Source: an uncultured Candidatus Saccharibacteria bacterium
GTDB taxonomy: Bacteria > Patescibacteriota > 4484-211 > JAGQKX01
Direction: 5' to 3'
Assembly: GCA_964392315.1 (NCBI GenBank)
Contig: CAYMOT010000003.1
Location: forward strand, 67,665-131,664
DNA length: 64,000 nucleotides
The first letter of the stretch is position 1. Each line of letters opens with the position of its first letter. Below, in pieces: positions 5,371 to 42,700 of this stretch. The position numbers and the translations under genes were made by a program. The notes under the pieces are model-generated. The model was given only the letters and a program-made list of their open reading frames with translations, had not been told where the DNA came from and searched no databases.

Positions 5371-5460
5371 GACAATTAAGTAATTATCTAATAAACTAAT
5401 ACACAAATAATCCAACTGCTTAATTCGCCTATTAGATTATTTGTATATTTGTCTATTACT
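5371..5460. repeat. AT-rich intergenic repeat element related to the TATTTGCR family
   Basis: attagattatttgtatatttgtctattact between ftsE and ftsX; shares attagattatttg with the 7684 copy. Confidence 0.5.
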
Positions 5461-7280: not shown

Positions 7281-7336
7281 ACAATAGTCGAATAGTCAAA
7301 TAATCTAATATACGAATTTACTAATTATCTACTGAC
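7281..7336. repeat. AT-rich intergenic repeat element (related family)
   Basis: aatagtcaaataatctaata...; shares aatagtcaaat with the 8873 copy. Confidence 0.45.
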
Positions 7337-7681
7337 CTTACGGGTTCTGTAAATAATTACGCTTAGTATCCTTACAATTTCTGAACACTCTTTAATATAG
7401 CGATCTAACTTTACATTAGAATATAAGCAGTTAAGTAATCTCATCCAATACAAAGTTTCATTTGCCTCTTTTTTAGCAATAGTTAGCTTGTTAATAAAGT
7501 CACGCTTAGAACTACATGCATCTGCCTCATTTGCATTAGCACCTATAGAAGTGACTGAACGTATTAGTTGTTTTTTAATGATATAACACTCCTGGGTTTT
7601 AGGAATTAAACGCGTCGTTTTAAGAGTAGAAACAATGAACGCGAAAATTCTATCGTAGATATCTATCCCCTCTCTCTCCAT
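7325..7681 (-). CDS. Four-helix-bundle protein (23S rRNA intervening-sequence protein family)
   Basis: 118 aa; the family pattern ...IRSVTSIGANANEA... and its size match TIGR02436-like proteins. Confidence 0.6.
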   Translation of the reverse strand: MEREGIDIYDRIFAFIVSTLKTTRLIPKTQECYIIKKQLIRSVTSIGANANEADACSSKRDFINKLTIAKKEANETLYWMRLLNCLYSNVKLDRYIKECSEIVRILSVIIYRTRKVSR

Positions 7682-7683
7682 CT

Positions 7684-7746
7684 TATTATTTTATTTGTGT
7701 ATTAGTCTATCCGTCAATTAGTTTATTAGATTATTTGCTTATTTAC
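7684..7746. repeat. TATTTGYR octamer-repeat element
   Basis: ttatttgtgtattagtctat...attagattatttgcttatttactta. Confidence 0.55.
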
Positions 7747-8671
7747 TTAAAATCCCCTTCATCCCCCGATGTATCATTATCCCTCCAATTAGTAACCCCA
7801 CTGCCGGTAGTAAGTACATCACTATCCCACTGCTCGTCGCAGGCAGTCCATTTACCATGTGCTCACCGAGCGTAGTTCCACCCTTTGAGGTGCTCACCCC
7901 ATCAAGAATTTGCCCCTCTTCACATCCCTTGACTCGTACAAATGCGTCACGTGTTTGATTCTCTTCACCAAGTTCTTCCTGATAGCCAAATGGTTGCACC
8001 ACAACCCGATAGTATCCACAATTTTGTGGTTGCCAGGACAATTTGAGATTCGTTCGTTCATTGGGTGCCAATGCTATCTCATCGGTGATATGCACGTATA
8101 TTGGTTTGGTACCAAGTACAACACCACCATAGGGATAGTCACCATCCTCTGGGTTGGAAGTTTGATAGCAAAATTCCTCTGCTATCAGCGCACAATCCTT
8201 CGTATCGTAATACATAGTGCGAAGCGTATCCTCGCTTACTGCTTTTATTTCTGAATCAGGCTGACCATTAATGTAGGCGGTTCTCTGGTCATACGAAATA
8301 CCATGCATGGTCGAGTTCCATAGTTCGGTTACTTTGTAGACTTTTAGCTCAAAGGTATTGGCATGGGGGTCTGGGCTGTTGTTAACCACAAGTGTACGAA
8401 ACTCCACAGTGTCAGAGAGTGAATAGGTCTGCGGAGATGGACGATACCCAAATAGCACATCAGCTCTAATCGGATTTTCTTCAAGATTAGGGGTACCAAT
8501 TGATACCTCTCCAACAAATGGGATATTCACGGCATAGATAGAGCGAGAGAAAAATGAGGTCAGTGCAAGTATGAGAATAACGCTCAGCGCGAGAGGGACA
8601 GATCGCACAAAAAACTTTGTGCTGAACATACACGCATTATAGGGCATAGTGCTCAATAAGCAAATATGCAA
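7739..8671 (-). CDS. Hypothetical secreted protein with a C-terminal LPAVG-hydrophobic-basic tail
   Basis: 310 aa. The annotated start lies in a TATTTGCR repeat, so the likely start is MFSTKFF..., which reads as a signal peptide. The C-terminus LPAVGLLIGGIMIHRGMKG resembles a sorting signal with a non-canonical LPxxG. Confidence 0.5.
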   Translation of the reverse strand: MHICLLSTMPYNACMFSTKFFVRSVPLALSVILILALTSFFSRSIYAVNIPFVGEVSIGTPNLEENPIRADVLFGYRPSPQTYSLSDTVEFRTLVVNNSPDPHANTFELKVYKVTELWNSTMHGISYDQRTAYINGQPDSEIKAVSEDTLRTMYYDTKDCALIAEEFCYQTSNPEDGDYPYGGVVLGTKPIYVHITDEIALAPNERTNLKLSWQPQNCGYYRVVVQPFGYQEELGEENQTRDAFVRVKGCEEGQILDGVSTSKGGTTLGEHMVNGLPATSSGIVMYLLPAVGLLIGGIMIHRGMKGILSK

Positions 8672-8867
8672 ATAAAAGAAAAACCCCTCAGCTTTCGCGT
8701 TGGGGTTTCTCTTTTGTAATCAGGGAGATGAGCCACTGTATGAACAAAATTCATTCAGTGGAATGTAATAATCCATTCTCAGAACATATGTTCAAAAAAT
8801 GAAAAATTACAGGGATATTATAAAGGTTAAAAGGATAAAAGTCAACCTATAGTAGTATTTAATATAC

Positions 8868-8946
8868 AAACCCCTAATAAACAAATAGTCAAATTTCGTA
8901 GCCTAACACAGTGCGTCCTGTTTTATTAGTCTATTTGTCTATTTGG
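8868..8946. repeat. AT-rich intergenic repeat element (related family)
   Basis: ctaataaacaaatagtcaaat...ttttattagtctatttgtctatttgg. Confidence 0.5.
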
Positions 8947-9026
8947 ATAATGGAAAAGAAAAGAGCCGGGCAAAGGGGATCACCCCTCGGCCCGGCCCTG
9001 CTATGTGCGGTCATTTGGTCACCTCA

Positions 9027-9584
9027 TTACTTATCATTGCCGATGAGAATCACCGGCGTAAGGGTTTCGGGCGACCATCCATAGATCGCTCCACCGCTGT
9101 CACTCCCGCGGCGGAGTGCTTCAATCGCGGACTCCGATGTCGACCAGAGCTGCTTCTCGACGACGAGTGTAATCACCTTATCATCGAGAGTAGACAAAGA
9201 AACATCGAGCGCCCAACCGTAGCTACTGCCCCGACACCAGTACCCGAAATAGTCATAAGCCCCTCTCCACGGCGGCTCAGGGGTTGGATACCCAACCAAT
9301 GAAAGGCCGGGAACGTAGACATTCCCGACTTCGGACGTCGGGATCCGAATCTCAGTCACCTTGTCAGGATTCAGGTGACACTCCACCGAAGGCATCTCTA
9401 CCTCCGGAAACCCTCGTCGCCGAGGTATTTCCACAGGCACCTGCCCACTCCCCTCATCCTCCACACGGGAGCCATACCCGTGTAGCCAGATGAGGGAGGT
9501 GCAGGAGCACAGGATGCCGAGACCAATCACCACAAGGAATCCGTATCCCAGTATCCTTGCGCATCCATCAAAAAATTGTTTCAC
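9027..9584 (-). CDS. Hypothetical membrane-anchored protein in a GC-rich islet
   Basis: 185 aa with an N-terminal TM helix. A GGAGG Shine-Dalgarno sits 8 nt upstream of a GTG start. Local GC is well above the flanks. Confidence 0.5.
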   Translation of the reverse strand: MKQFFDGCARILGYGFLVVIGLGILCSCTSLIWLHGYGSRVEDEGSGQVPVEIPRRRGFPEVEMPSVECHLNPDKVTEIRIPTSEVGNVYVPGLSLVGYPTPEPPWRGAYDYFGYWCRGSSYGWALDVSLSTLDDKVITLVVEKQLWSTSESAIEALRRGSDSGGAIYGWSPETLTPVILIGNDK

Positions 9585-9701
9585 TTAATGTACCTCCATT
9601 AACTACGTTTGAGCCATTATACCATAGCCTATAGGCTTTATGTTTTACTTAACTCTTTCAATATACTTTACACTCAACCACACAGCGACTATCATATAAT
9701 C

Positions 9702-10787
9702 ATGCGCAACCAATTTGGTGAAAGCGGCGAGCCACGCGTAACTACCGTAGAAGAAGCAGCCGGTCAAAACCTTGATCTCGGTGCAGAATTCTTTGATGGT
9801 CTCCCTGTCGCTGGAGAAGCTCCAGCCACCCTCGGCTACGAACCCTCAATCGACCAAATCAACGAGCGTGCTGCACAACTCGACCCCTATAACGAGCAGC
9901 CAGCTGATATTGTGTCTGCGCTAGCTCGAGAGCAGCTGGTAGCAGAGCACGATAAAGCCCTCCGAGATGCAGAGTTAGCGTTAGAAGCAACTCGTGCAGA
10001 GGAACAAAGACAAGAGCAGAACAGGCAAAAGGCCGAAGAGTGGAATGCAGCATATGAAGCATTGGTAACCCGAAACATAAACGAGTCACAAATGCTCTTA
10101 GATGGTATCGGCCTCGATGAGACCACTTGCACAGATGCGCAACTCTGGCTAAATATGGATAGCCTCAGGGGATACACTACCTGGCAACTACAAGAATTAC
10201 AAAAAAAGACCATGCGATGGTCAAGCAGAGCACGAGCAACCACATATGCTCCCGATGATTTACGAGAAGACATCCGTGTCGGTACAACAACATATGACGA
10301 AAAAGATAGAATGAGTGGACATATTCAAATAGATCGCTATGCCTCTGATGAAAGACGCAATTTCCAGATTCATCTGGTAGACCCTGACGTTAAGAAAGAA
10401 CAAGGACCTCATTTTCGCAATATGATGATACGTTATAAAGGCAAAGGGAAATTCGGATCCGTTGATTCGGGAAATCCGGAGCACACTCGTTTTTTTATAA
10501 ATATTGATGTATCCGGAAAGATCGGTTCATTAATGGAAGTATTACCTACGACAAACGAGGTTATTGGTGCATCTCCCGGTGCGTCACATATACAAGATCA
10601 AGAAGGAGAGCACAGAAAAGCCGAGCAAATACTTTACCGTTTGAAGCAAGAATTCGGAGTTGATCTCCAGCTAGAAGCACCAGAAGGAATGCAATTAGAC
10701 ATGCAAGCAACGATTGTTGACCTTATAGAACGTGCCGCAGAAGATCCAGATGCCATGCCTATCCCAAGATACAAAGTCATAGAATAA
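9702..10787 (+). CDS. Hypothetical protein
   Basis: The ORF opens at 9609, but the likely start is the ATG at 9702 (MRNQFGESGEP), preceded by TATAAT. About 361 aa with no motif I recognise. Confidence 0.5.
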   Translation: MRNQFGESGEPRVTTVEEAAGQNLDLGAEFFDGLPVAGEAPATLGYEPSIDQINERAAQLDPYNEQPADIVSALAREQLVAEHDKALRDAELALEATRAEEQRQEQNRQKAEEWNAAYEALVTRNINESQMLLDGIGLDETTCTDAQLWLNMDSLRGYTTWQLQELQKKTMRWSSRARATTYAPDDLREDIRVGTTTYDEKDRMSGHIQIDRYASDERRNFQIHLVDPDVKKEQGPHFRNMMIRYKGKGKFGSVDSGNPEHTRFFINIDVSGKIGSLMEVLPTTNEVIGASPGASHIQDQEGEHRKAEQILYRLKQEFGVDLQLEAPEGMQLDMQATIVDLIERAAEDPDAMPIPRYKVIE

Positions 10788-10990
10788 GCACGTCGTACTA
10801 CTATTTCAAAATCTACAGTTACGAAAATATTAAATATAAAGTCAATTTGAGATAGTCACAATTCCTCCCACTATACAGCCTCTAGTAGCGGTAAATATTC
10901 GTTTCAAGAATATCAGCCTAATAGGTGTAACTCCCTTTCACATCAAGACTTTCATCCTATTACATAATTAGGTTTGTTGACAAATACCCC

Positions 10991-11019
10991 TTGACATAAC
11001 TATAGGCTTATAGTAGAAT
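10991..11019 (+). promoter_or_regulatory. Near-consensus sigma70 promoter in a gene-free region
   Basis: TTGACA (10991-10996), a 17-nt spacer, then TAGAAT (11014-11019). No ORF lies downstream for about 680 bp. Confidence 0.4.
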
Positions 11020-11300
11020 AGATCCCATAAGAAACAACTAGCACATTAATCATCATTATTTGACGCTCAAAGGGAGAGGGCACGGAATCAAAAAACTATT
11101 ACTATGCTCGCTCCCCGCGGGCTTTTTGTATTATATGGGCTTAATATCAGCGGCAAGTAGCCACTATTTGCCAGTGATATTAATCACTTCCCAATCAGGG
11201 ATTGCACTTAAAAAATCAATTCGCTAGTTATTTACAAGGTCCTGAGCGATTCGACTGAGCTCATCGTCGAAGTCTTGCCGAAGGACGAACAGACTAGCCC

Positions 11301-11440
11301 ATTTGCAGGAACAAGAGAGGTAAGAATGAGAAATGAGAAATATGCACATGTGAAATGAAATTCATTTGCATATTTACACATTTGCTTATTTGCATATTTG
11401 TTTATTTGCTTATTCTCTTCTCTCTCGTTCCTGCAAACAG
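11301..11440. mobile_element. MITE-like palindromic element built around seven TATTTGCR-type octamers
   Basis: tttgcaggaacaagagag... (11301-11330) is inverted-complementary to ...ctctctcgttcctgcaaa (11411-11437), with about 21 of 24 positions matching. The core (11351-11412) is catttgca tatttaca catttgct tatttgca tatttgtt tatttgct tattctct. Confidence 0.45.
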
Positions 11441-11699
11441 AAAGTGAATAATAGCTTCGACCGTCTTGGGGTGCCAAGAAACGGATGTCCTCCGTTAACT
11501 GAGTTGAAATATACTCCTTCGAAGTTATACTAGCTTTCTCACTGTGGGAAAATAGACAGGTTGGCGTGCCTTGGCCACCTGTTTGCTGCTGCGCCCCCCA
11601 TTGCGGGATAATGCGCAGACCCCGCAAGGGGCGCACCAAAGGCAACAAGCACTCAACCGCGGCATCCGCCGCTTATTAGCTTCACCAAGGAGGTTTGAG

Positions 11700-12602
11700 A
11701 TGAAGCAATATCGTCTGTTCGCTCTGTTCCTGGCCAGCATGATTCTGCTGGCCCTTGCCGCCTGCGGCGGTATGGTCGTCGGGGATCCGACCAATCCGAC
11801 CGGATCCAACTTCAGTGCCGAAGGCGGCACCATCGTCGTCATCGTCCCCGAAGACTATCCCATTGAGCCGGCGTATGCCGACTTCAACGGGATCAAGTTG
11901 ACGGTCGACCGCGTTGCGGCGCAGGTGCCCGGGTTTGATCCCTCCTTGCTGATCGGCGACCCCGTGGTCGCGGAGGCGGCCGGGATCAAGTACTATAGCA
12001 TCTTCGCTGATCAGCAGAACGCGACGCTCGATATCAACGGCGCGGCCATCACCTCGCCGATCGAGTCGACGCAAGAACTGCTGGCGATTGCCGCCAACGC
12101 CGGAATGTTCCCCGTCGAGGGCGCCACGGCTCTCAGCGCCGCTCTCGACTTCGTCGAGGGCAGTGGGTGGAACTTCAACTTCGCGATCGTCTACCCGGGT
12201 TTTGACACGGCGGTCGACGAGTTGCCGTGGGTGGCGGCCGACTTGGCCGCTCAAGCGGCTGCGCAGCAGACCGCCGCCCAGCAGCCGGCGCCGGTGGCCA
12301 CGCTGAGCCCGCTCGGCCAGCAGCTGGTCGCCGCCGGCCAGCCCGCGGTGCCGGCCTCGCCGGCGCCATGGGAAGGGATCGATCTCACGGGGGACATGTT
12401 TTCCCCATTGGATTACGAGTCCGCCACCCAGGCGGCCCGCCGTATCGGCACGCAAGGGTACTCGACACGGTGCCTCAGTTTGTACTTTGAGGCAGTGGTG
12501 GAGTGGGATTTCGAGCCTAACGGCGACGGGAACCCGAACCACTGGGACTACTGGCGCACGGACGTCGAGATCCCCCTGCCGGCCGTCTGCCTGGCCAACT
12601 AG
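11700..12602 (+). CDS. Lipoprotein, Ala/Pro-rich, GC-rich foreign-looking gene
   Basis: The ORF track starts at 11571, but an AAGGAGG Shine-Dalgarno precedes the ATG at 11700. MKQYRLFALFLASMILLALAACGG is a lipoprotein signal with lipobox LAAC. GC is very high, and the antisense shadow ORFs here are spurious. Confidence 0.65.
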   Translation: MKQYRLFALFLASMILLALAACGGMVVGDPTNPTGSNFSAEGGTIVVIVPEDYPIEPAYADFNGIKLTVDRVAAQVPGFDPSLLIGDPVVAEAAGIKYYSIFADQQNATLDINGAAITSPIESTQELLAIAANAGMFPVEGATALSAALDFVEGSGWNFNFAIVYPGFDTAVDELPWVAADLAAQAAAQQTAAQQPAPVATLSPLGQQLVAAGQPAVPASPAPWEGIDLTGDMFSPLDYESATQAARRIGTQGYSTRCLSLYFEAVVEWDFEPNGDGNPNHWDYWRTDVEIPLPAVCLAN

Positions 12603-12654
12603 CGAATTCAGTCCCGCCTTCACCGGCGAGACACTAGCCCCTAAGAAGGGCACC

Positions 12655-12705
12655 AAAAAAGAAGAGCGTAGCTATCCGAGCTACGCTCTCTTCTTATTTG
12701 CTTTC
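12655..12705 (+). terminator. Rho-independent terminator after the lipoprotein gene
   Basis: agaagagcgtagct-atccg-agctacgctctcttct stem-loop followed by a T-rich tail (tatttgctttc). Confidence 0.65.
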
Positions 12706-12723
12706 AAATTTTGAAGATAAATA

Positions 12724-12835
12724 AGAGGAACTACTAAACTCCAATTGCACATTTAAATAATTTCATCGACACCTCCATCGAAGGATCTAGCCGATACACA
12801 TTGCTTCCTGATAGATAGTTGGATGGAGGTGTAGG
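12724..12835 (+). promoter_or_regulatory. Conserved 5' leader copy 1 with anti-SD/SD hairpin
   Basis: About 55 nt (gaggaactac...ccaattgcacatttaaataatttcatc) nearly identical to 13311-13365. cacctccatc (12770-12779) is perfectly complementary to gatggaggtg (12821-12830), which holds the Shine-Dalgarno immediately 5' of the ATG at 12836. Confidence 0.55.
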
Positions 12836-13228
12836 ATGTGGAAAAGAATTGTTGATTTTATTTTTGAATTCGTAAATACCATGGCCTTTCTAGTAATGGC
12901 TGTGGCTATATTCGGTATGGCTGATGTCCAGATCGTTGCGGTAACCGCGGATTCGTCCGATGTTACTGTGACGTTCCGCGGGCAAGACCGTAGTATTGGC
13001 AACAACAGCTACGGTTTGATCGCAACGAATGTTCCCTTGTGGGATCTGGACGCCATCCAGGTCCAGATCGAGGGCAACCCTGAGTGGGTCGCCACCCAGG
13101 TTACCTATCCGAAGATCCTTCGGGTATTTGGGGTACATGGGTGCCTCGACCTGCAAGGTGTTGCGGAGGACGCCGTCGAACAAGAAATTACCGACGTCAT
13201 ATGCAGAATTACCTACACAGGTAGGTAG
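12836..13228 (+). CDS. Small membrane/secreted hypothetical protein
   Basis: 130 aa with an N-terminal hydrophobic segment; preceded by the conserved leader. Confidence 0.55.
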   Translation: MWKRIVDFIFEFVNTMAFLVMAVAIFGMADVQIVAVTADSSDVTVTFRGQDRSIGNNSYGLIATNVPLWDLDAIQVQIEGNPEWVATQVTYPKILRVFGVHGCLDLQGVAEDAVEQEITDVICRITYTGR

Positions 13229-13249
13229 CCTGCAAGAGACATAAACAGC

Positions 13250-13290
13250 AAGAAGGTGTGGAACCCACACCTTCCTTCTCTTTTGTTTTC
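13250..13290 (+). terminator. Rho-independent terminator
   Basis: gaaggtgtgg-aaccc-acaccttc hairpin followed by cttctcttttgttttc. Confidence 0.65.
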
Positions 13291-13310
13291 AATCACTTGA
13301 AAGCAGACGA

Positions 13311-13410
13311 GAGGAACTACTGAATTCCAATTGCACATTTAAATAATTTCATCAACGCCTCCACCAAGATCCTAGATCTGCTATGTGTTTTGGGATTTTA
13401 GTGGAGGTTT
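13311..13410 (+). promoter_or_regulatory. Conserved 5' leader copy 2 with anti-SD/SD hairpin
   Basis: Shares the conserved 55 nt with copy 1. cctccac (13359-13365) pairs with gtggagg (13401-13407) directly upstream of the ATG at 13411. The cat/gatg to cac/gtgg difference is compensatory and preserves the stem. Confidence 0.55.
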
Positions 13411-13830
13411 ATGATGAGACAAAGACATGGGTGGTTACTAACTTTCGCCTTACTAGCGCTTGTACTCGCCCTGGCGCAGGTGGGCGAAACACTTGTCCCC
13501 AAGGACAAGATATTCAGCGATGAATTCTATACGCTCCCTGCAGTAGAGAATACAGTCCGCCTAAACGTGAGAGGCATAGGCGAGGGAACGTATCAGATCC
13601 TCGGCTTCTGGGATGAAGCCCCTTGGAAGTTCGAGGAAAACAACGAAGGGGTTGTCGGGTATATACCCAGCCGTCACCCCATGATCGCGGTAAACGGACA
13701 GTGGACCGCAATTACTCTTCGGATCATTGGCGATACCGAGTACGTCGTCATGTTCGACAATAATTACCGGTATCACGTGGAAGAAGAGAGTTTGACTAAT
13801 GGGGTAATCGTCACGATCACCCACTATTAA
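13411..13830 (+). CDS. Secreted hypothetical protein
   Basis: 139 aa with signal peptide MMRQRHGWLLTFALLALVLALAQV. Confidence 0.6.
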   Translation: MMRQRHGWLLTFALLALVLALAQVGETLVPKDKIFSDEFYTLPAVENTVRLNVRGIGEGTYQILGFWDEAPWKFEENNEGVVGYIPSRHPMIAVNGQWTAITLRIIGDTEYVVMFDNNYRYHVEEESLTNGVIVTITHY

Positions 13831-13874
13831 TAGTATCACCGGCGAAACGACAATGCCGGGAAAGGAGATAAGAC

Positions 13875-14330
13875 ATGAAACGTTTGCTTCTTTTTGCTGG
13901 CCTACTGCTTCTGGGTATAGCCATTGGTGCGGCCGGAGGCTACGGCGTCGGCGTTCCCGTCGGGGAGGATCGGGCGTTCGACAAGACTGCCCAGTACCTC
14001 CACCAAGGCGGCACGCCCCCGTGGGCCGGCCAGGGCAATGAGGGCCTGGCCCTGTGCATCACTCTCACCGAAGGTGAGGATGCAGGGGCCCGTTGCCTCA
14101 CAGAAGTGGACGAGGAGCAAGCGGAGGAAGAGGCACCGTCCCCAGCCAACAACAATAGCGGTTCGCCCACGCCACAGACTTCGCCCACGGCACTGCCGAC
14201 CGTGGACTTGCATATTACGATCCTGTCACCGGCAGTCCCGACGCAAGTGGCAGCGACCCCAACTATCGCCTCGTCGGCGACCCCCTCGCCGACCGCGACA
14301 GCTCGTCCCACCCGGGACACAGGCGACTAA
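13875..14330 (+). CDS. Secreted Pro/Thr/Ala-rich hypothetical protein
   Basis: 151 aa. Signal peptide MKRLLLFAGLLLLGIAIGAAGG and a low-complexity PT-rich C-terminus; GC-rich. GGAGA Shine-Dalgarno upstream. Confidence 0.6.
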   Translation: MKRLLLFAGLLLLGIAIGAAGGYGVGVPVGEDRAFDKTAQYLHQGGTPPWAGQGNEGLALCITLTEGEDAGARCLTEVDEEQAEEEAPSPANNNSGSPTPQTSPTALPTVDLHITILSPAVPTQVAATPTIASSATPSPTATARPTRDTGD

Positions 14331-14331
14331 C

Positions 14332-14369
14332 GAGAGCGTGGCCAAGTGAACAACTTGGCCACGCTCTCA
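14332..14369 (+). terminator. 16-bp perfect stem-loop after the island's last gene
   Basis: gagagcgtggccaagt-gaaca-acttggccacgctctc. No U-tract follows, so it may be a GC-type terminator or a stability element. Confidence 0.45.
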
Positions 14370-14686
14370 CGCATCAGCTCTAAACCCACATCACAAAAAT
14401 ACACTGCATTCTATACTGTAAAAATTAAGAGAGTACTCTCACAGGAGAACGACTATGTTTAAGTTATTCGTAAGAGACAAATTGCCTGAGCATCAGGCCC
14501 TATTAGGTGGTTAAGATACGACAAACGACACAGTTTACCAAATCATTTTTGAAAGCTACCCTACAAACTTCAAAACATACAATATCCGTACCTATTTGTT
14601 AGTAACTTCGTATACTTTGCACCTGCTTGAAACCAGCACCTTTTATTGTTATAATTAGGTTCATCACGATGACCAAGCTAAGCAGC

Positions 14687-15189
14687 CTAAGGTTTCGACC
14701 GACCGCTGATCTTGGTCTTTTTTATTTGTAAGCTTTCTTTCAATAAATCTATTCTGACAACGTATTCATTGAATCTCCTTAATAGGCTAGAAAACTTTTT
14801 GTTTGGTACCATCAACCGAAGTAACTTATCTTTTCCTTCCAAATATTCTATCAAGCAATGAAAATCTCCATCGCCCGTTGCAATAATTGCTTTATTATAG
14901 CTTTTGTAGTGAATCATCGTGTGCAGCACTAACTCTGCGTCGACATTTCCTTTTACAGTACCGTCAGGTAATTCTAACGTAGGCTTGAATATCAAAATAA
15001 AACCGCACTCTTGTAAATGCGTATACAAAAACTCATTACCTGTCTCACATGTCCTATAAACACATACGCCTTAATGACACTGTATTTATTTCGTAGATAC
15101 TGACGAAATTTACTCCAATCCAAAATCCAACCCTGTGAACGGATACCAAGATTGACGTTTTGGCTATCAATAAACGCGTAGTTAGACAT
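14687..15189 (-). pseudogene. NYN-domain (LabA-like) nuclease gene disrupted by a frameshift
   Basis: ORFs 14992..15189 (N-terminal part, ...FIDSQNVNLG...) and 14687..15028 (C-terminal part, ...GNVDAELV...ATGDGDFHCLIEYL...) overlap in different frames. Together they form one NYN domain of about 170 aa. The shift falls near an A-rich run at about 14990-15010. Confidence 0.5.
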
Positions 15190-15296
15190 AAGGTCACTAT
15201 ATGTAATAGTATATACCGCAACCCTTCTCCTGAATCAATCCTGATCTCGCTATTCGGAAACTATAGACAGACCTTTATTGTTTATTTCATTGCCCT

Positions 15297-17435
15297 TTGC
15301 TATGCTTGATCTGTATGCATCAATCTCCCGAGCTCAGACACGAAATACTATCGCAGTACAGAGCCGCACGTGAGACTCTTACTCCAGAACAACGGGCAAA
15401 TCTTAGAGACATTCTCCGCGACGCTGAAAATCCTGCTCGTGCATATGACTGGTTTATTGGACTATTGGGTGATGAAGACTTAGCGGCACCCGAATCTTAT
15501 AACGCGTCACCATCTGAGCAAGAACTCTTAGAGAGGCAGTTAGAACTTGTCGATGCATTAGACACCTTTGTTGCAGATCCCCTAAGCATTCCTACCGAAA
15601 GGCACCCACAGCTCCTGAGACACTTAGCGTATCAGATGGAACGTGACCTCCCTACCCTCACCGGTGACCCACTCAAACCCGGAGAACATCTTGTGTCTCT
15701 TTCATTTAATGGTGTAAAAGCACTTAACCAAAACGGCGCAGGCATACATATAACCAATTTAATCCTCCAAAGATTTCGACAAGAGATAGACACCGCACTA
15801 CGGCAGCATGACCTAGTGGATGTAACAATGATCCCAACACAACAGCTATGGAAACGGGTAAGTTTTCGGATTTCCGAAGGAGATGCGGCTACGATCAGAG
15901 AAAAAACAGCGATACTCGAAGCACAAGTAACAGAACGGATACAGGCATATATCGACACATTTGATGATATAGACATCCCTCCGGAAGCAAAAACAGAAAC
16001 AAAGAATTCCATCCATATAACAAGCGGACTTGCATCTGCGCGGGAAAGCGAAATGGATGTTTTTGATGCATTGCAGATATCTGTCATGCAGTGTGAGGCC
16101 CAAAACTTTTTTGACGATTGTGAGGACAAGCGAGAAGTAATCCGAAGATATCTGGAAGAAACGCCAGGAGCTCAAGAAGTACTCGCACTGCTTGATCGTG
16201 AACTACCCGACACGTCTGAAGAACAGATGCAGCATTTGTTCGAAACATCGGATGCAATACATAGATATATCGTGGCTGTCTCCCAAAGATATGCACCTAC
16301 TTATGTAGAAGAAATGCCAGAGCTAAATGGCAATCTAGGCTTATCCGAGACATTCTTTGCTCATATTAGGCAAGACAACCTTGCAGCCATGTTTGATGCG
16401 TTTGAAGGTGCACCACTTACGCGAGGTGAAATAATCGCACTCTCACACCTTGGCGGTCTGTATACAAAGTCACTATTCACTCCTGCAGTACTCAAAGAGT
16501 TTACCCACGAACAATCAGCCCAGCATACCCGCAAGACCCAAGCATTACAGTCATCAACTGAACGAATACTGGCACTCGCAAAAGTGGGCAAAGTAACTCC
16601 TGAAAACGCACTTACCGCGAAACAACATCTTGCAGAAGCATGGGATCATCTACGAAGAGACCATCGGTTTACTGATGCTGGGCTCAATGGGTTATTCATG
16701 AATTCGCTTTTTTTTGATGAAACTGCATTAGCATATGACTCCCCGCAGTATTTATCACTTGACCTTATAGGAGTAGGCGCCGAATATCTAAAAGAAGCAC
16801 AGGTTGCCCAACAACGCATTGCTGCAACTGGCAACACCTATGCAGCCATCGTTACAGAAACAAGAACCCTGAGCGAAAACAGCTGGAGACGAATAAAAAG
16901 AACCTTTGACACAGTCGGCACATCACTCACGCAAGAACCATCTATCGCACCGTATATTACAGAAAATTATGGCCTAATTCCTGCGTTTACCAAGGGAGAT
17001 GAGATGGTGATCGCAATCCCCGGAACTATTCCAACCGAGGATATTATTCGGGCGATGCAGCGGTCGCTTCGAGAGTTGGGCTCGGAACATGGAAAAAAGG
17101 ATGCGCGGGTTTCTCTTGCGACAGCAGTACGACCTGACCTGCCCCACCAATCACCTAATGACCGAATTGCAGCACATCTTGATACACGTGTTCTGAGTGA
17201 AAAAGTGGGGATTGATATTGCGAAGAAATTAGAATTAATAATCCCGGATGGCGTAACAGAAATTGCACGGGATGAACATGGTACCATTCGATTCCGCGTT
17301 CATTGGGGTAAGACAGCAACTCAAACTACACGATGGTTTGACGTTAGTGACATACTAGATAAATCCGATGATGAAGATGATTTAGATCAATATAACCGAT
17401 TGCTTGATGAGATTCGTTCTATAGTTAGGGAATAA
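15297..17435 (+). CDS. Large hypothetical protein (712 aa)
   Basis: Long uninterrupted ORF with no motif I recognise; acidic C-terminus. Confidence 0.55.
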   Translation: MLCLICMHQSPELRHEILSQYRAARETLTPEQRANLRDILRDAENPARAYDWFIGLLGDEDLAAPESYNASPSEQELLERQLELVDALDTFVADPLSIPTERHPQLLRHLAYQMERDLPTLTGDPLKPGEHLVSLSFNGVKALNQNGAGIHITNLILQRFRQEIDTALRQHDLVDVTMIPTQQLWKRVSFRISEGDAATIREKTAILEAQVTERIQAYIDTFDDIDIPPEAKTETKNSIHITSGLASARESEMDVFDALQISVMQCEAQNFFDDCEDKREVIRRYLEETPGAQEVLALLDRELPDTSEEQMQHLFETSDAIHRYIVAVSQRYAPTYVEEMPELNGNLGLSETFFAHIRQDNLAAMFDAFEGAPLTRGEIIALSHLGGLYTKSLFTPAVLKEFTHEQSAQHTRKTQALQSSTERILALAKVGKVTPENALTAKQHLAEAWDHLRRDHRFTDAGLNGLFMNSLFFDETALAYDSPQYLSLDLIGVGAEYLKEAQVAQQRIAATGNTYAAIVTETRTLSENSWRRIKRTFDTVGTSLTQEPSIAPYITENYGLIPAFTKGDEMVIAIPGTIPTEDIIRAMQRSLRELGSEHGKKDARVSLATAVRPDLPHQSPNDRIAAHLDTRVLSEKVGIDIAKKLELIIPDGVTEIARDEHGTIRFRVHWGKTATQTTRWFDVSDILDKSDDEDDLDQYNRLLDEIRSIVRE

Positions 17436-17441
17436 TACGTA

Positions 17442-17771
17442 CTAATCTGAAGATTGTTGCTGGAGAAGTTCTTTCATACCTCCTACCTGCAATTGTTCGA
17501 CATATTCACGCGTCAGTTCATCACTTACTTTCTGGGGTTCTTCACCGGTTTCTTCAATAAATCTTTGTCTGATATATGCATTTGCCTCTTCTTCATCTTC
17601 AATTTGCTCTAGCTTTTGATAATCCTCCTCTACCATTATCTTGGTAAGCATACGATCCATGTTTCTGGCAACTTCAATGCCTATTGATTCCACAACCAAT
17701 GCTCGTTCAGCTTGACTTAGTTGCATCTTATTAAATAATTCTTCAAGTTTTTGAGCTATTTGTGTATCCAT
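17442..17771 (-). CDS. Small acidic helical protein (109 aa), partner of the 662-aa protein
   Basis: Immediately downstream of 17775..19763 on the same strand; highly acidic and predicted all-helical. Confidence 0.5.
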   Translation of the reverse strand: MDTQIAQKLEELFNKMQLSQAERALVVESIGIEVARNMDRMLTKIMVEEDYQKLEQIEDEEEANAYIRQRFIEETGEEPQKVSDELTREYVEQLQVGGMKELLQQQSSD

Positions 17772-17774
17772 AGG

Positions 17775-19763
17775 TTATGGTAACGGGATATCCAAAGTCT
17801 GTCCTGGATATATCCAATGTACTGCACGGAAAAAGTGCTTCCTGAATTCTTCTGCAGATGCATCAGGATTTTCAAGCGCAAACTCATAAAAATTATTGAC
17901 TCCAATTTCGTTACCTACACTTAATACTGCATCATTCCTTGTTATGAAATCAACCATCCACTCAGGATTATTATACGCATGTCCAGTAACACCAAGATTA
18001 TCCAGCATATGCTCCAATGGATGACCTGCCTCAACAACCATCTCCGTGGAGTTGAAATACTGCTCTATCCAATCACTGAACCGAGCACCAACTTCTCCTC
18101 CAAGATCAGAAGCTGTTTCACGTGCAATTCCAAGAGCCTCTGCAGCGGATTCTGGATTGCCTTCAACCAGTCTCCTGAAAAATTCACGCGCGCCTTCTGT
18201 AATTTGACTATCAAAAGATTCTGGCCCACCTGGAGCATGGTCGACTATATCTCCGATCAACTCTGCTGCTACTCCTCTTGCATCCCCAGCCGTATCAGCT
18301 ATTGCTCTCCATTGGTCCATAGCAGAGCCACCTGCATCCCGAGCGGCGTCTGCGATTGCCTCACCTACGGAATTTCCAGGCGTCCCATCGGCGATAGTAT
18401 CTATGAAATCAGCTCCTGACTCTCCAGCTTGTCGGATACCTTGCAAAAGCCCTTGATGTGCATCACCAATACGATCACCTACGTTCGCACCAAATTCCGC
18501 CACATTCCCTGCGGCATTTATTGCACGTGGCAGCATTCTGAATCCTAATCGAGCACCCGCCCCACCCATTTCTCCAGCTGCGTCAAGCGAAGCCCTTCCA
18601 ACCTCACGTGCTGCCTCTGCAACATTTTGCATCATTTCAGGTGCGACTGCATGCAAACCCAGGTTCATAAGACTACTTGCTGCGAGACCAGAGGAAAAGC
18701 CACTGAGTTTGTACCGTGCATTTTTGTATCGTTCTTCAAATCGCAAACGTTCTGCGGGAGTCAATTGCTTCTTCAGATGCCATCGAGAAATTTTTTCTAA
18801 TGCAAAGCTCGTCGCATACGTACCAGCAGTTATTGCTAATCGCGGAACCGGACCCATTCCTGCAAAACCTAGTCCTGTTGCAGTACCTCCAACAATTGCA
18901 CCAAAAATATATGCCTTTTTACTTTTACCGGTCCAGGTATATGGCCGTGTAAACGCACTAACTACACCCTTAATTTTCTGCCATTTAGTTTTTTCTGATT
19001 CTTGAGCTTCAGGAGTACGCTGAGTTTCTGCACTAGGTGTTATATCTTGACTCCTCGGTCTCTCTGGAAAAATAGGATAGTTACGCTCTTCATGCAAAAC
19101 AATATTACCCTCTGCATCTCTATGAGGTGTAACTGGTCTCCTAACACTAAGATACGGTCGCCAATACAATGAATCATCTTCTACACTAGTACCTGGAGTA
19201 AGCGGTAATTGGGCACCTGATTCAGCAGTATTAGCAGCCCGGGTTGTCGGCGATCCAGCTCTCTGAGTTTCTTGTGTCGCCGGTTGTTCAGCTAAACGCT
19301 GAGCTGCTACTTGTCTTTCTTGTTGCCGTTGTTGAATAGCCCGCTCTATGTCATCTAGTGTTCGATCTGGTCCAGCAACTGACTGGTGCAATCTGCCTTC
19401 TCCTAAATTCATTACTGCATCTGGCCGACGCGGATTACCTTGTGCATCTCTAAGCACTGCTCCACCTTCAGCTCTAGCAGCAGGCGCAAGTTGATTTGCG
19501 CGAGGTTGCGGTGCTGTGGCATGTCGAGGATTATCTGAAAATCTACTAGCTATAGGAGGCAAGGGATTTAAAAGGTCAGCATTATTTCGGCGTGGATTTG
19601 GCCCATTAGCGGCTGTAGATGCATCCTGTGGTCCAATTTCATTTTGTGCCAATTGGGCATATCGTTCAGGGTCTGAGGGTAAGCCTGGCAAAGGAGGTAA
19701 TGGTCCTGTCATAATATCTAGTAATAGATATAACCGAATCGTATTTTTTAAACAAGTACCCAA
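17775..19763 (-). CDS. Large low-complexity membrane/surface protein with LysM-like C-terminus
   Basis: 662 aa with a Pro-rich N-terminus, a TM-like Gly-rich segment, and Ala/Gly/Asp-rich repeats (AxDAxG). The C-terminus ...IYPGQTLDIPLP resembles the end of a LysM motif. Confidence 0.55.
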   Translation of the reverse strand: MGTCLKNTIRLYLLLDIMTGPLPPLPGLPSDPERYAQLAQNEIGPQDASTAANGPNPRRNNADLLNPLPPIASRFSDNPRHATAPQPRANQLAPAARAEGGAVLRDAQGNPRRPDAVMNLGEGRLHQSVAGPDRTLDDIERAIQQRQQERQVAAQRLAEQPATQETQRAGSPTTRAANTAESGAQLPLTPGTSVEDDSLYWRPYLSVRRPVTPHRDAEGNIVLHEERNYPIFPERPRSQDITPSAETQRTPEAQESEKTKWQKIKGVVSAFTRPYTWTGKSKKAYIFGAIVGGTATGLGFAGMGPVPRLAITAGTYATSFALEKISRWHLKKQLTPAERLRFEERYKNARYKLSGFSSGLAASSLMNLGLHAVAPEMMQNVAEAAREVGRASLDAAGEMGGAGARLGFRMLPRAINAAGNVAEFGANVGDRIGDAHQGLLQGIRQAGESGADFIDTIADGTPGNSVGEAIADAARDAGGSAMDQWRAIADTAGDARGVAAELIGDIVDHAPGGPESFDSQITEGAREFFRRLVEGNPESAAEALGIARETASDLGGEVGARFSDWIEQYFNSTEMVVEAGHPLEHMLDNLGVTGHAYNNPEWMVDFITRNDAVLSVGNEIGVNNFYEFALENPDASAEEFRKHFFRAVHWIYPGQTLDIPLP

Positions 19764-19784
19764 TTTGTAGCTATCACAAATCTA

Positions 19785-19817
19785 TTGACAACTCTAAAAA
19801 TAGCATGTATCTATTAT
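19785..19817 (+). promoter_or_regulatory. Sigma70-like promoter for the 863-aa gene
   Basis: TTGACA (19785-19790), a 17-nt spacer, then TATCTA, continuing into TATTATAT. The ATG at 19832 has no obvious Shine-Dalgarno. Confidence 0.4.
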
Positions 19818-19831
19818 ATAGTATTTAACAT

Positions 19832-22423
19832 ATGCCCAATCCTGCTTCACCAGCACAAGAACCACAGCCACCACTCGATCCACGTGTAGCAATTCAAAGA
19901 AGATTACAAGGAGATCAAGGATCAGCAGAACAGTTTGTTATCGGAAATGCTCGACCTATTAATAAAGAAGTAGGAGGGATAGATTTTGGTGGTGAGGCAC
20001 GACGAGAGAAAAAAGGTCTCGAGAGACTCGCATTTTGGAGAAAAACAGAAACTGTAGGAGTTCCTGCTGGTGCTATTGCACGAGAAAGTCTTGGAGGCCC
20101 CGGTACCATTCAAAATCGTGAAAATCAGAGAAAAGCTGAGAGCCTCCGCACACGACTCGTTGAATTGCGAGAACAGATTCCCGATCTAACCCAAGAACAA
20201 CTAGATAGAATGACTCCGCAAGAAATTGAGGAAATTCGCCGGAAGCGTGAACAATATATGCAGCTGCATGAAGCACATCGAGTAATGACAGAATTCCAAA
20301 CTGCTGCCGCATCCCTAGGAGAACTCGAACGAGCGCAAAGACTTTTAGAAAACCCAAATATAACCGCCGAAGAACGCACTATTTTGCTACAAAAGCAGGC
20401 AGCGCACCTTGCGACTGCTCATTGGGGGATCACTCGATACCAACAACGATATGAGATAGGTGGCCCCTCCTTTGCAGAGGCCCGCAACCAAGTTAGTTCT
20501 GGTACTCAGCGTTTAGAGGATACTGCATGGTACCAAAGCGTTGTACAAAAAGTTGCTCTGGAATACGGCATGAACGAACAAAGCAATATCGTCAAGCAAG
20601 CAGCGCGCTCTATTTTCGATAAAGAGCAGCAGCCAAATACAAGTATGGGGGCCGCACTCGGCGAGGTAGAGGCGGCAATGTTAGGAGCACCACGTCCTGA
20701 ATTAAGAGTAAAAATGACGAAGCAAGAGCTTGCAATGCAACAGACGGTACTTGCTAATCTCCGAAACAATCACTTTGTGTTCCGGGTATTACAAAATGAA
20801 TCTGGTCCACAGGCTGCCCTTAACGAATATGAAAAATACCTTGCTATGCAGCGAGCACAATTTGTTTCGGAAGCTCGCAGAGGTATTAGCAATGAAGTTA
20901 ATGCAATAGCGCCCGAAAGACGATCTCCTACTCTTCAAGGACTCGTTCGGTCAGTCGAGACAGCTCATGACGAATATAGAGTCATAGAGCAAACAATAAA
21001 TCCTGCTCTGAGGGAAGCAACACGTCAACAAGAAGACGCTGAGCGGGAGTACAACGCAGCGCATCAGGAAGCGAATGAATTACGAAGTGACAAGGCAGCC
21101 GCCGAAGACGAACTTCAAGATTTAGAAACACAAAGAAGAGATGCAAATCCTGTGGTTAAGTTTCATGAGGATGAAGAAAAGCTTAGATCCGATGTCAGAC
21201 AATTAGCATTTAGGGTAAGGTTTGATAACTTAAATAGATTCCTAACACAAGGAGAGTTTAATAGAATGTGTACAGCATTAGGAGGACTAAGTAGCTCTGA
21301 TAACTTGAATGCACGTTCTGTTAGAGAAGCAGGTATTACAAGCTCGAGTATTGGAATAGTTACTGAAAGTTTCAGAAGTACTGTTACACCTGAGGTTAGT
21401 GGTATCACTACCACTTTGGTTACCCTAAGGACAGATATACAGACATTAGAGAATCAACTACTTGTACTACAAAATAATGGAACAGTATTAGAAAGTGACC
21501 GTGAGCTTCTTAGATTAGAAAATGAATTAATACAACAAATCAATGATCTAGAAAATTTACTGGAGCAAGCGGAAAACGGAAGTGTTCAGTTGGAGCAATC
21601 GCTAGTTGATTTAGCAACTGCTGTCCGAAGTAATGACGAACAAGATATCCGCAATGCAGTTGTTGACGTACTTGCTACAAGAGATTCACTGAGAAATGTA
21701 TGGCAAAATGCAAGAAGGGCAATAAATCCAGGAGGAGCAGGAAATAGGTATGGTGGCCGACAAAGGGAGATCAGTGATTCTAGAGGCGAATTAGAAGCAT
21801 ATGCAGCAAATCCTAATATTGTTCAAGAGAGAAACGATCGAAAATCTGGGTATCAGTATGCCCTCTCTGCACAGGCAGCGTCTCATATACGCAGCTTACA
21901 GAGCGAAATACGACAAACTAATGGTGCATTGAGCCGTGCAGAACAAGAAGAAACTGCAGCTAGGGGAGAGCTTGATCAAATTCGTACAGAGTCTGCCCAA
22001 GAAGCAGCAAGAAAGGTAAGCAGGGAAATCTTGGGCGCCCAAGTTGGGAATGACCACGAACTCGTCAGAGGGTTAGAGCGGGAACTGGCGAGTGATTTTA
22101 GAAATCCACGAAATGCTGATAGGAGACTCGCGTGGTATAAAATATTGAACTTCCTCGATCATGCATTTACTACAGAGATCGCGACCCCTTATACGCCAAC
22201 CACTCCTGCACAACAGCCACCTAGGAGGCGCTTTCAAGGAGCATCAGCAGATGCAGATAGGGACAACAATACAGCACCACGCAGAGATGCTACACTAACC
22301 GCACGAGGAGGAGGAAGGACACCCCGAGGAGCTGGCGCTCCAGGACCTAGCCCTCGGCCACGAGGAGCACAAGGAGGAAGAGGGTCTGGCCGTGGACGGA
22401 GAGGAGGAGGAACTAACTTTTAA
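19832..22423 (+). CDS. Large coiled-coil hypothetical protein with RGG-rich C-terminus (863 aa)
   Basis: Long Q/E/R/L-rich heptad-like regions. The C-terminal 60 aa are Arg/Gly-rich (GGRGSGRGRRGGG). Confidence 0.55.
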   Translation: MPNPASPAQEPQPPLDPRVAIQRRLQGDQGSAEQFVIGNARPINKEVGGIDFGGEARREKKGLERLAFWRKTETVGVPAGAIARESLGGPGTIQNRENQRKAESLRTRLVELREQIPDLTQEQLDRMTPQEIEEIRRKREQYMQLHEAHRVMTEFQTAAASLGELERAQRLLENPNITAEERTILLQKQAAHLATAHWGITRYQQRYEIGGPSFAEARNQVSSGTQRLEDTAWYQSVVQKVALEYGMNEQSNIVKQAARSIFDKEQQPNTSMGAALGEVEAAMLGAPRPELRVKMTKQELAMQQTVLANLRNNHFVFRVLQNESGPQAALNEYEKYLAMQRAQFVSEARRGISNEVNAIAPERRSPTLQGLVRSVETAHDEYRVIEQTINPALREATRQQEDAEREYNAAHQEANELRSDKAAAEDELQDLETQRRDANPVVKFHEDEEKLRSDVRQLAFRVRFDNLNRFLTQGEFNRMCTALGGLSSSDNLNARSVREAGITSSSIGIVTESFRSTVTPEVSGITTTLVTLRTDIQTLENQLLVLQNNGTVLESDRELLRLENELIQQINDLENLLEQAENGSVQLEQSLVDLATAVRSNDEQDIRNAVVDVLATRDSLRNVWQNARRAINPGGAGNRYGGRQREISDSRGELEAYAANPNIVQERNDRKSGYQYALSAQAASHIRSLQSEIRQTNGALSRAEQEETAARGELDQIRTESAQEAARKVSREILGAQVGNDHELVRGLERELASDFRNPRNADRRLAWYKILNFLDHAFTTEIATPYTPTTPAQQPPRRRFQGASADADRDNNTAPRRDATLTARGGGRTPRGAGAPGPSPRPRGAQGGRGSGRGRRGGGTNF

Positions 22424-22447
22424 TAAAAAGTTAGTTATAATAAACAT

Positions 22448-23935
<1,488 letters not shown>

Positions 23936-33816: not shown

Positions 33817-33902
33817 GAATAATCAAATATGCAAATAGCTAATACGAAAATGAATGTATTAATTTGCTTATTTGCATATTGGTATTATTTGCTTATTAAA
33901 TC
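33817..33902. repeat. TATTTGCR octamer-repeat element
   Basis: caaatatgcaaatagc...aatttgcttatttgcatattggtattatttgcttattaaatc. Confidence 0.6.
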
Positions 33903-39989: not shown

Positions 39990-40021
39990 TTTACTTGATG
40001 AATACTATGCAATTTGGCAGG

Positions 40022-42508: not shown

Positions 42509-42553
42509 GAGTGAGCGATGTGTAGATTAGTTATGAAAGCGAGTGAGATAAAA

Positions 42554-42700
42554 ATGTGCAGGCATCAACGTAAATGTCCGAAATGTAGCACATCCTGTTG
42601 GTGCGATTTGATGACAAACATTTTTATTCTTACGAGCGGAAACTTGACTTTCCAAAGATTTAGGCTTACTTATTTCGCGCTTTTTCTAGCAAGTCATTAA
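42554..42700 (+). CDS. Small Cys-rich peptide, copy 1
   Basis: MCRHQRKCPKCSTSCWCDLMTNIF... The N-terminal 24 aa and the upstream gcgagYgagata...aaaATG are conserved with the copy at 57928. Synonymous differences (ccg/cct, aca/acg) suggest the ORF is coding. Confidence 0.4.
   Translation: MCRHQRKCPKCSTSCWCDLMTNIFILTSGNLTFQRFRLTYFALFLASH

Follow-up and report, generated by a model that had tools for sequence, protein, structure and literature searches.

Why should a handful of small adjoining genes be far richer in G and C at their synonymous sites than the genes around them? The question is raised by a locus at 11.2–14.4 kb of a 64,000-nucleotide (nt) stretch of DNA from an uncultured Candidatus Saccharibacteria bacterium (assembly GCA_964392315.1, contig CAYMOT010000003.1, forward-strand positions 67,665–131,664), which is referred to here as the window. 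An earlier note, made from the letters of the window, had taken the locus for an island acquired from a high-GC donor, with an assembly chimera as the alternative. The reading preferred here, at a probability of roughly 60%, is that of a lineage-specific recombining cassette array for exported orphan proteins, the coding GC of which is held far above that of the genome. The locus is best described as belonging to the known class of hypervariable surface-protein islands, its compositional behaviour setting it apart; the hypervariability, the shuffling of cassettes and the regulatory leaders go beyond what the earlier note had seen.

The array would comprise single-gene cassettes for envelope or secreted proteins (a lipoprotein, p130, p139 and p151), with p185 at 9.0–9.6 kb as a putative fifth, separate member of the same kind. 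Each array gene starts just after a strong Shine-Dalgarno (SD) sequence, and the lipoprotein, p130 and p139 genes have long leaders of their own. The features of the locus are listed below, where GC3 is the GC content of third codon positions and z its deviation from 51 other genes of the window (GC3 0.379±0.050, maximum 0.49).

9027–9584, minus strand: p185 gene, GTG start, GGAGG at 9593–9597, hydrophobic N-terminus, orphan, hypervariable between strains; GC3 0.61, z = 4.6
11205–11230, plus strand: left anchor, 26 nt common to divergent lipoprotein cassettes, an assembly-graph branch point
11302–11437, unstranded: inverted repeat, core TGCAGGAAC ... GTTCCTGCA around a variable AT-rich 8-nt array (ATTTGCNT)
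11455–11699, plus strand: lipoprotein 5' leader, GC-rich, multi-hairpin, GGAGG at 11689–11693
11700–12602, plus strand: lipoprotein gene, 300 amino acids, lipobox LALAAC after a K/R n-region; GC3 0.84, z = 9.1
12663–12689, plus strand: terminator-like hairpin downstream of the lipoprotein gene, with the conserved block CTTCTTATTTGC next in line
12711–12835, plus strand: leader 1, repeat copy 1 at 12711–12777, hairpin at 12764–12838, recombination breakpoint
12836–13228, plus strand: p130 gene, N-terminal hydrophobic membrane helix and then a beta-rich domain as modelled, four allele classes; GC3 0.58, z = 4.0
13252–13274, plus strand: terminator-like hairpin after p130
13297–13410, plus strand: leader 2, repeat copy 2 at 13297–13363, hairpin at 13347–13419
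13411–13830, plus strand: p139 gene, signal peptide-like N-terminus, domain of about 115 amino acids without family match; GC3 0.60, z = 4.4
13875–14330, plus strand: p151 gene, hydrophobic signal-peptide-like N-terminus, acidic middle, Pro/Thr-rich tail; GC3 0.68, z = 6.0
14332–14368, unstranded: perfect 16-bp inverted repeat closing the island, no T-run after it

The lipoprotein, p130, p139 and p185 genes have GGAGG 6–8 nt upstream of their starts, and a 67-nt repeat stands ahead of p130 and again ahead of p139. There is a hairpin after each of the lipoprotein, p130 and p151 genes, and none was found after p139. The lipobox, the signal-peptide-like N-termini of p139 and p151, the Pro/Thr-rich tail, the two terminators and the 16-bp perfect hairpin are all present where the earlier note had placed them, and the strong GGAGG sequences that it reported can be read directly upstream of lipoprotein, p130 and p139. 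In the lipoprotein, an Ala/Gln/Pro linker joins a variable N-terminal domain to a conserved C-terminal domain with two cysteines that are invariant across alleles; the lipobox cysteine is also invariant, within LALAAC in the window and within LAAC, GTAC or LNGC in other alleles. The products would leave the cytoplasm via Sec, and the lipoprotein would be lipid-anchored via Lgt; the window encodes both SecA (26964–29717, minus strand) and Lgt (PF01790, 40567–41235, E = 1.5e-33).

Composition, alleles and reassortment

The whole window has a GC content of 0.437. In 300-nt segments, GC rises from about 0.40 at 11.2–11.5 kb to 0.56–0.72 over 11.5–12.7 kb, lies at 0.41–0.53 over 12.7–13.9 kb and at 0.64–0.66 over 13.9–14.35 kb, and goes down to 0.35–0.38 to the right of 14.35 kb, with a second patch of 0.56–0.58 at 8.95–9.55 kb. 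The tetranucleotide distance between the island and the rest of the window is 0.47 (median 0.19). The check by windowed GC, GC3 and tetranucleotides that the earlier note had proposed confirms the anomaly; of its claim that GC stays elevated to about 14.35 kb, the part at 13.9–14.35 kb stands and the part at 12.7–13.9 kb does not, while its GC-rich islet at 8.95–9.6 kb, with GGAGG and a GTG start, is the p185 gene.

The compositional anomaly of the island is located at synonymous sites. The lipoprotein gene has a GC content of about 0.65, against 0.44 for the window, and codon fractions change from genome to island from 0.46 to 0.02 for GCA, from 0.23 to 0.81 for ATC, from 0.36 to 0.92 for AAC and from 0.36 to 1.0 for AAG. 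The lipoprotein itself is Ala-rich and Lys-poor, like a protein of a high-GC organism. The two long spacers of the island have GC contents of 0.43 and 0.41, and the 44-nt spacer before p151 has 0.50, and all contigs that were examined share these AT-rich spacers; GC skew over 11.5–12.7 kb is about 0 (−0.07 to +0.02). An antisense gene opposite the lipoprotein was considered and rejected, as the long antisense open reading frame (ORF) is broken by a stop in three of the six alleles; its codon-aligned frame is open wherever the sense strand, avoiding A-ending codons, is free of TTA, CTA and TCA, and the view of the earlier note that antisense ORFs here are high-GC artefacts is sound for this long one, a by-product of composition. 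Another GC-rich patch of the window, at 31–32 kb, encodes an Ala/Gly/Arg-rich repeat protein with a GC3 of only 0.33; it is driven by amino-acid content and is thus a different phenomenon.

Related contigs were recovered by exact-protein look-ups in Logan assemblies of many independent sequencing runs. Aligned to the L095 strain at the nucleotide level, the window shows the following identities:

most of 3.1–8.8 kb: 92–100%
7.33–7.77 kb (four-helix-bundle gene): 55–72%
8.82–9.65 kb: 70–83%
10.7–13.29 kb: 59–85%, with two 92% blocks (11518–11665 and 12551–12699)
13293 onward: 99–100%

Overall, the flanks are 95–100% identical, against 59–85% over 8.8–9.65 kb and 10.7–13.29 kb. The return of identity at 13293 is sharp and lies close to the start of the second copy of the 67-nt repeat (leader 2). 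Amino acid identities to L095 are 99.8% for an M23 peptidase, 99.6% for FtsE, 99.2% for FtsX and 98.6% for RF2 among housekeeping proteins, 68% for the lipoprotein, 75% for p130 and 70% for p185 among the variable ones, and 100% for p139 and 99% for p151 in the right part of the array. The lipoprotein occurs as six alleles of 54–84% identity, which form a domain mosaic, with synonymous divergence (dS) of 0.77–1.3 and ratios of nonsynonymous to synonymous divergence (dN/dS) of 0.17–0.46; the p130 alleles are 72–75% identical (dS 0.39–1.3, dN/dS 0.15–0.38), and p185 differs from the L095 allele with a dS of 0.74 and a dN/dS of 0.25. Housekeeping genes between strains have a dS of 0.03–0.20. High dS combined with a dN/dS of 0.15–0.46 marks the alleles as genuine genes, kept by purifying selection and much older than the strains in which they are found.

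Each fetched contig was typed against reference alleles in the order lipoprotein, p130, slot 3, slot 4, with the following result:

W-W-W-W: the window and related contigs
B-B-W-W: L095 series
A-A-A: L091
C-C: L089
R-W-A: L108
A/C hybrid lipoprotein with p130-C: L117
slot 3 W with slot 4 V: L008

These seven slot combinations, together with two intragenic lipoprotein hybrids (P0003 and L117), are evidence of recombination. In L108, the p130 allele of the window stands between foreign neighbours, with breaks where leader 1 begins (about 12717) and just past the p130 stop codon (about 13237), and further breakpoints lie at 13293 (L095) and about 13322 (L008). The N- and C-terminal domains of the lipoprotein reassort on either side of the linker: the final 70 residues are 100% identical in P0002 and P0003, and the part ahead of them is 68–75% identical, and the L117 lipoprotein joins an A-like N-domain to a C-type C-domain. 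Slot 3 is occupied in other strains by an unrelated protein of the same length with a signal peptide (E = 7 for the replacement against p139) and in L120 by a third protein type, while p151 in L008 has 142 amino acids and 71% identity with indels. Two alleles were found within one run in ERR2586216 (L107 and L117) and in SRR26868046 (L090 and L093), and identical alleles recur across unrelated run series.

Several short blocks are shared by otherwise divergent cassettes. The R allele, whose upstream region differs in other respects, matches the left anchor at 100%, short-read contigs end at conserved blocks such as this anchor, and the Logan contigs L001, L003 and L005 begin at 11200/11201, near the anchor. 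The region of the hairpin at 12663–12689 and of the block that follows it is conserved across alleles. On the preferred reading, the population would hold several old allele classes per slot, and homologous recombination in the conserved terminator and leader blocks and in the Ala/Gln/Pro linker would swap cassettes and domains between strains, so that near-identical genomes are proposed to show different surface sets. The most likely driver would be frequency-dependent selection, exerted by phages, by a host or partner cell, or by an immune system; as the probable exported proteins that vary most in a deeply branching lineage, the products are prime candidates for recognition by phages, hosts and partner cells.

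In hypervariable or flexible islands, such as O-antigen and capsule loci and those of marine bacteria, surface alleles are swapped via conserved flanks. The locus resembles them in its near-identical flanks, its deeply diverged alleles older than the strains, its mosaic combinations and the co-occurrence of several alleles in one sample, and probably also in having exported or surface-located products. The GC content of such islands is usually below that of the genome, and their genes are for glycosyltransferases or for surface proteins already known, whereas here the coding sequences are 4–9 standard deviations richer in GC3 and all products are orphans. The unit of exchange also differs, being a single small gene with its own leader.

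Predicted leader RNAs of the cassettes

The hairpin in the p130 leader (12764–12838) has a predicted folding energy of −34 kcal/mol (z = −2.8) and that in the p139 leader (13347–13419) one of −39.5 kcal/mol (z = −4.7). In each of them, GGAGG is predicted to pair with a CCUCC strand, and the GAUG at the start codon with the CAUC that flanks this strand. The same fold (z −5.3 to −5.9) is predicted for three more p130-leader alleles with different interior sequences, and three of the 23 pairs in the consensus of the five leader sequences show compensatory changes. The lipoprotein leader, of about 245 nt, is GC-rich and multi-hairpin (fold z = −3.5); its block at 11518–11665 is 92% identical to L095 where the adjoining coding sequence is 59–78% identical, and it is kept in the W, A, B and C alleles, while the R allele has an unrelated GC-rich leader. 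The leaders matched nothing in Rfam, whether the gathering threshold or a limit of E ≤ 1 was applied, and no promoter of p130 or p139 passed the consensus scan.

By burying both SD and AUG, the leader hairpin would gate the translation of p130 and p139. Leaders that sequester the SD sequence are known from RNA thermometers (ROSE, fourU) and other anti-SD hairpins. The likeness to thermometers lies in the predicted pairing of a CCUCC strand with GGAGG and the start codon, and in a predicted fold kept through sequence change. With −33 to −39 kcal/mol, the stems here far exceed those of typical thermometers in stability as well as in length, and they match no Rfam family. The SD- and AUG-sequestering leaders constitute an undescribed candidate regulatory RNA motif with natural covariation in hand.

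Origin and proposed maintenance of the high coding GC

High GC is best read as a stable property of these coding sequences and not as a fading trace of recent import. All six lipoprotein alleles have a GC3 of 0.80–0.87, and the p130, slot-3 and slot-4 alleles lie at 0.58–0.74 throughout; deeply diverged alleles that are all GC-rich at the same site do not form the pattern of a recent, ameliorating insertion. Differences at four-fold sites among the lipoprotein alleles comprise 298 between G and C, 237 between G/C and A/T, and 7 between A and T (55% G↔C), compared with 9, 72 and 10, respectively, in the flanking genes of the same strains (10% G↔C). The ratio of G↔C to G/C↔A/T differences is thus 1.26, against about 0.23 predicted from the flank spectrum scaled to the composition of the island. 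This spectrum implies that the alleles diverged where G/C-ending codons were preserved, or in high-GC genomes. Divergence and maintenance in place are favoured, because the family is unseen in any other context, the long spacers are host-like and the samples that carry the island were among those searched.

What preserves the G/C-ending codons would be either a GC bias in the repair of recombination heteroduplexes or selection that acts on mRNA or codons. Biased heteroduplex repair at a recombination hot spot is the obvious candidate for the maintenance of GC; GC-biased conversion in bacteria has been reported as a positive difference in GC between recombining and non-recombining genes (PMC4450053). 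The full proposal, in which such a process acting in place holds synonymous GC above 0.8 in a bacterium of 43% GC, over alleles with saturated synonymous sites, and the leaders serve both as recombination anchors and as translational switches, is tentative, and we consider it clearly less probable than its negation. If GC is maintained in place, the locus would be an unusually clean bacterial system in which to set biased gene conversion against codon or mRNA selection, and a natural setting in which to measure the GC bias of bacterial gene conversion. It would also be an extreme bacterial case of recombination-linked GC elevation, and a functional parallel, built differently, to the vls system of Borrelia.

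A number of observations limit the preferred reading or weigh against it. Third-position singletons polarised among four alleles run from G/C to A/T in 50 cases, from A/T to G/C in 11 and between G and C in 66, a count uninformative about direction, as parsimony is biased at such saturation and composition, and within allele classes there is no polymorphism from which the direction of change could be polarised. The hypervariable four-helix-bundle gene (49% identity) is AT-rich, with a GC3 of about 0.2–0.3, as is the 320-amino-acid insertion gene of L095 (GC3 0.26), and such AT-rich hypervariable genes nearby make the correlation between GC and variability imperfect. The effect of GC-biased conversion in bacteria is reportedly a few GC3 points, far below the 45 seen here. 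An unsampled reservoir of high-GC alleles would also count against it. As to the products, their export and surface location are suggested by the lipobox and the hydrophobic N-termini, the AlphaFold2 models are of low confidence (mean predicted local distance difference test (pLDDT) scores of 63.5 for the lipoprotein and 67.3 for p130), and Foldseek against PDB and BFVD gave nothing better than E = 0.002, the best match having a template modelling score of 0.12, and thus no significant structural neighbour. As modelled, p130 has an N-terminal helix followed by a beta-rich domain, and the lipoprotein may have a mixed alpha/beta domain at residues 31–180 (pLDDT 63–83) and a disordered Ala/Gln/Pro linker.

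Horizontal acquisition from a high-GC donor, either recent or, in a weaker form, ancient or fed by an unsampled reservoir that still supplies alleles, is the strongest of the alternatives and is on the whole unlikely. It would account for the GC3 of 0.58–0.84, the codon usage of high-GC type and the Ala-rich, Lys-poor lipoprotein, the spectrum rich in G↔C differences is also expected if the alleles diverged in high-GC genomes, and an origin within a genome of 43% GC is hard to picture. Like a classical genomic island, the locus has a sharp compositional break and foreign codon usage. Unlike one, it shows neither mobility genes among the ORFs scanned nor a tRNA or repeat boundary, a donor or presence/absence polymorphism, its spacers are host-like, and its GC is unameliorated despite saturated synonymous divergence. 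No tRNA gene occurs in the 64 kb, no direct repeats flank the island, and no Pfam match of integrase or transposase type was found among the neighbouring ORFs scanned; each related contig that reaches the site carries cassettes, only the alleles varying. The two long spacers are genome-like (0.41–0.43 GC), the terminator and leader blocks are conserved, and alleles with a dS of about 1 all lie at the same site.

The search for a donor with the island proteins, as the earlier note had proposed, recovered only their own family. Among 5.8 billion proteins, the lipoprotein has only five clusters, all from short-read contigs of this lineage (54–100% identity), p130 has three and p139 a single one. 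A profile of the five lipoprotein clusters, run with HMMER against 1.84 billion representatives, returned the family itself and one match to a 37-residue motif; this match, P0013, was rejected as a homologue, as it is a beta-helix repeat protein sharing only the 37-residue 'LDxNGA' motif (hhalign probability 23%). The lipoprotein found nothing in GTDB representatives, IMG/VR or JGI metagenomes, tblastn against plasmids and phages found nothing, and the leader motif had no match in a metagenome scan. The collections searched include assemblies of samples that carry the island, and this absence of homologues outside the contigs of the lineage counts against a donor. None of the five proteins matched Pfam, NCBIfam, PHROGs or PADLOC above threshold; a trace of IgGFc_binding in p130 is sub-threshold, one of phrog_20083 among the island proteins is a weak match, and both were set aside. 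As for the lineage, SecA reaches no more than 52% identity with any of 185,579 GTDB species representatives, its best matches including Patescibacteria genomes and others, which suggests that the lineage has no close representative in that collection.

The strong form of this explanation, in which the island came recently from a high-GC donor that can be identified, for instance the actinobacterial host suggested earlier, is contradicted by the absence of homologues outside the lineage in the collections searched and of marks of mobility in the sequence scanned; the cassette family may have an ancient foreign origin. An anomaly of local GC is by default taken for recent horizontal transfer, a reading that fails here, where the anomaly is old, donor-less in searches, confined to coding sequence and persistent through saturating synonymous divergence.

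The closest precedent for a GC-rich variable lipoprotein is vls of Borrelia, the cassettes of which, encoding a variable surface lipoprotein, have 49% GC in a genome of 28.6% GC and a GC skew of 0.52, and for which selection for high G+C was inferred (PMC11499132). In both systems, variable lipoprotein DNA lies about 20 GC points above the genome and forms recombination mosaics, and here too no gene is more GC-rich or more mosaic than that of the lipoprotein. Antigenic variation of the vls type, in which the lipoprotein gene would be an expression site rewritten from silent cassettes elsewhere in the genome, is nevertheless very improbable. The GC skew is about 0 here, G-runs are lacking, there is no sequence relationship (no match to VlsE or any other Pfam family), and repeat search, blastn and tblastn found no silent copies, fragments or array in the 64 kb. 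Divergence covers whole genes and leaders, and variation takes the form of stable allele classes between strains, identical across unrelated samples and not segmentally scrambled, instead of arising within a clone. A more distant analogy may be drawn with Cryptosporidium canis, in which GC-rich subtelomeric genes are reported to encode secreted proteins (PMC10438818) and high GC is likewise confined to one compartment of a low-GC genome; this organism is a eukaryote with meiotic recombination, and the likeness is one of analogy only.

Targeted hypermutation by a diversity-generating retroelement (DGR) or similar mutator, with GC as a side effect, can be given almost no weight. DGRs are common in small-genome lineages, and the four-helix-bundle gene at 7334–7681 is of an Avd-like family. 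However, the window has no template/variable repeat pair, no reverse transcriptase occurs among the ORFs scanned, and divergence extends over 2.5 kb including non-coding DNA; a dN/dS of 0.17–0.46 with saturated dS points to old alleles and not to fresh mutagenesis.

An assembly chimera or binning error that joined high-GC DNA to a low-GC contig, for which only the abrupt change in composition speaks, is refuted, as far as assemblies can show, by the reproduction of the junctions in independent assemblies. Both island junctions are identical in contigs from more than 10 independent run series. Four of the contigs recovered, 98–100% identical to the window, cover these parts of it:

L001: spans 11201–15429
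L002: spans 10182–13952
L101: spans 10836–15228
L007: spans 12522–23833

Contigs crossing the boundaries come from ERR2586215-7, SRR15237799/813/816, SRR12898367, SRR13871837, SRR34646260, SRR36615392-401, SRR35280562 and other runs, with 99–100% identity. A more distant strain (L006/L095) shares the gene order FtsX-FtsE-RF2 ... lipoprotein-p130-p139-p151-NYN, and the arrangement recurs in a diverged strain (85–89%). GC-rich coding sequences alternate with genome-like AT-rich spacers that bear the organism's own repeat motifs, a pattern that no single mis-join could yield.

Neighbouring features of the window

The inverted repeat to the left of the lipoprotein leader keeps its core in the L095, L091 and L111 alleles, with the interior swapped, and has counterparts at 40–160 of L111 and about 9600–9740 of L095. 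Together with the 8-mer array that it brackets, it may constitute an element that inverts or forms a hairpin. The array may be inverted in the R allele, where the segment, itself palindromic, aligns with scores of 20 (forward) and 27 (reverse). AT-rich tandem arrays of 8 nt (TATTTGNN / ATTTGCNT) occur on either strand, mostly in or near gaps between ORFs, and may be a protein-binding or promoter-associated motif of the lineage. Their positions are:

4390–4465
5414–5457
7684–7751
8655–8676
8864–8954
11355–11422
33847–33885
35646–35689
63181–63230

In other strains, the array before the lipoprotein is swapped for arrays of a different 8-mer (CTAATTNN). L095 and L096 have an extra orphan gene of 312–320 amino acids (L095 8188–9150, GC3 0.26) that is not in the window; it falls between window positions 10828 and 10977, an indel polymorphism directly left of the island.

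The four-helix-bundle gene (7334–7681, minus strand), of the TIGR02436 / 23S_rRNA_IVP family, has 49% identity where its neighbours have 98–99%, and this AT-rich gene appears to be a second kind of hypervariable spot. Next to it, a 310-amino-acid orphan (7739–8671, minus strand) has a signal-like N-terminus and a C-terminal LPATS followed by a hydrophobic stretch and a basic tail; its resemblance to a sortase sorting signal suggests a wall-anchored protein adjoining the variable region. To the right of the island, the NYN-domain (LabA-like) gene (14687–15189, minus strand) is split into ORFs of 113 and 65 amino acids by a 2-bp difference at about 15043–15045. The identical contig L101 has the gene split likewise, and other strains have an intact ORF of 166 amino acids.

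Three large Ala/Gly/Arg/Pro-rich orphans (17775–19763, minus strand; 19832–22423, plus strand; 29758–32055, minus strand) have GC contents of 0.62–0.67 at first and 0.45–0.53 at second codon positions and the lowest GC3 of the window (0.27–0.33), and the last of them contains internal repeats of 120 and 285 nt at 30968–31558. Two tandem genes of the GreA/GreB family (39507–40495, minus strand) are followed by lgt. A complete type I restriction-modification system (HsdR, HsdS and HsdM; 46593–53946, minus strand) lies in the part of the window with the lowest GC content (0.35–0.40). A 76-nt element with inverted ends (AAAAATGT ... ACATTTTT) is present between ORFs in two copies of 82% identity (42550–42625 and 57924–57999) and could represent either a structured RNA or a repeat element of small size.

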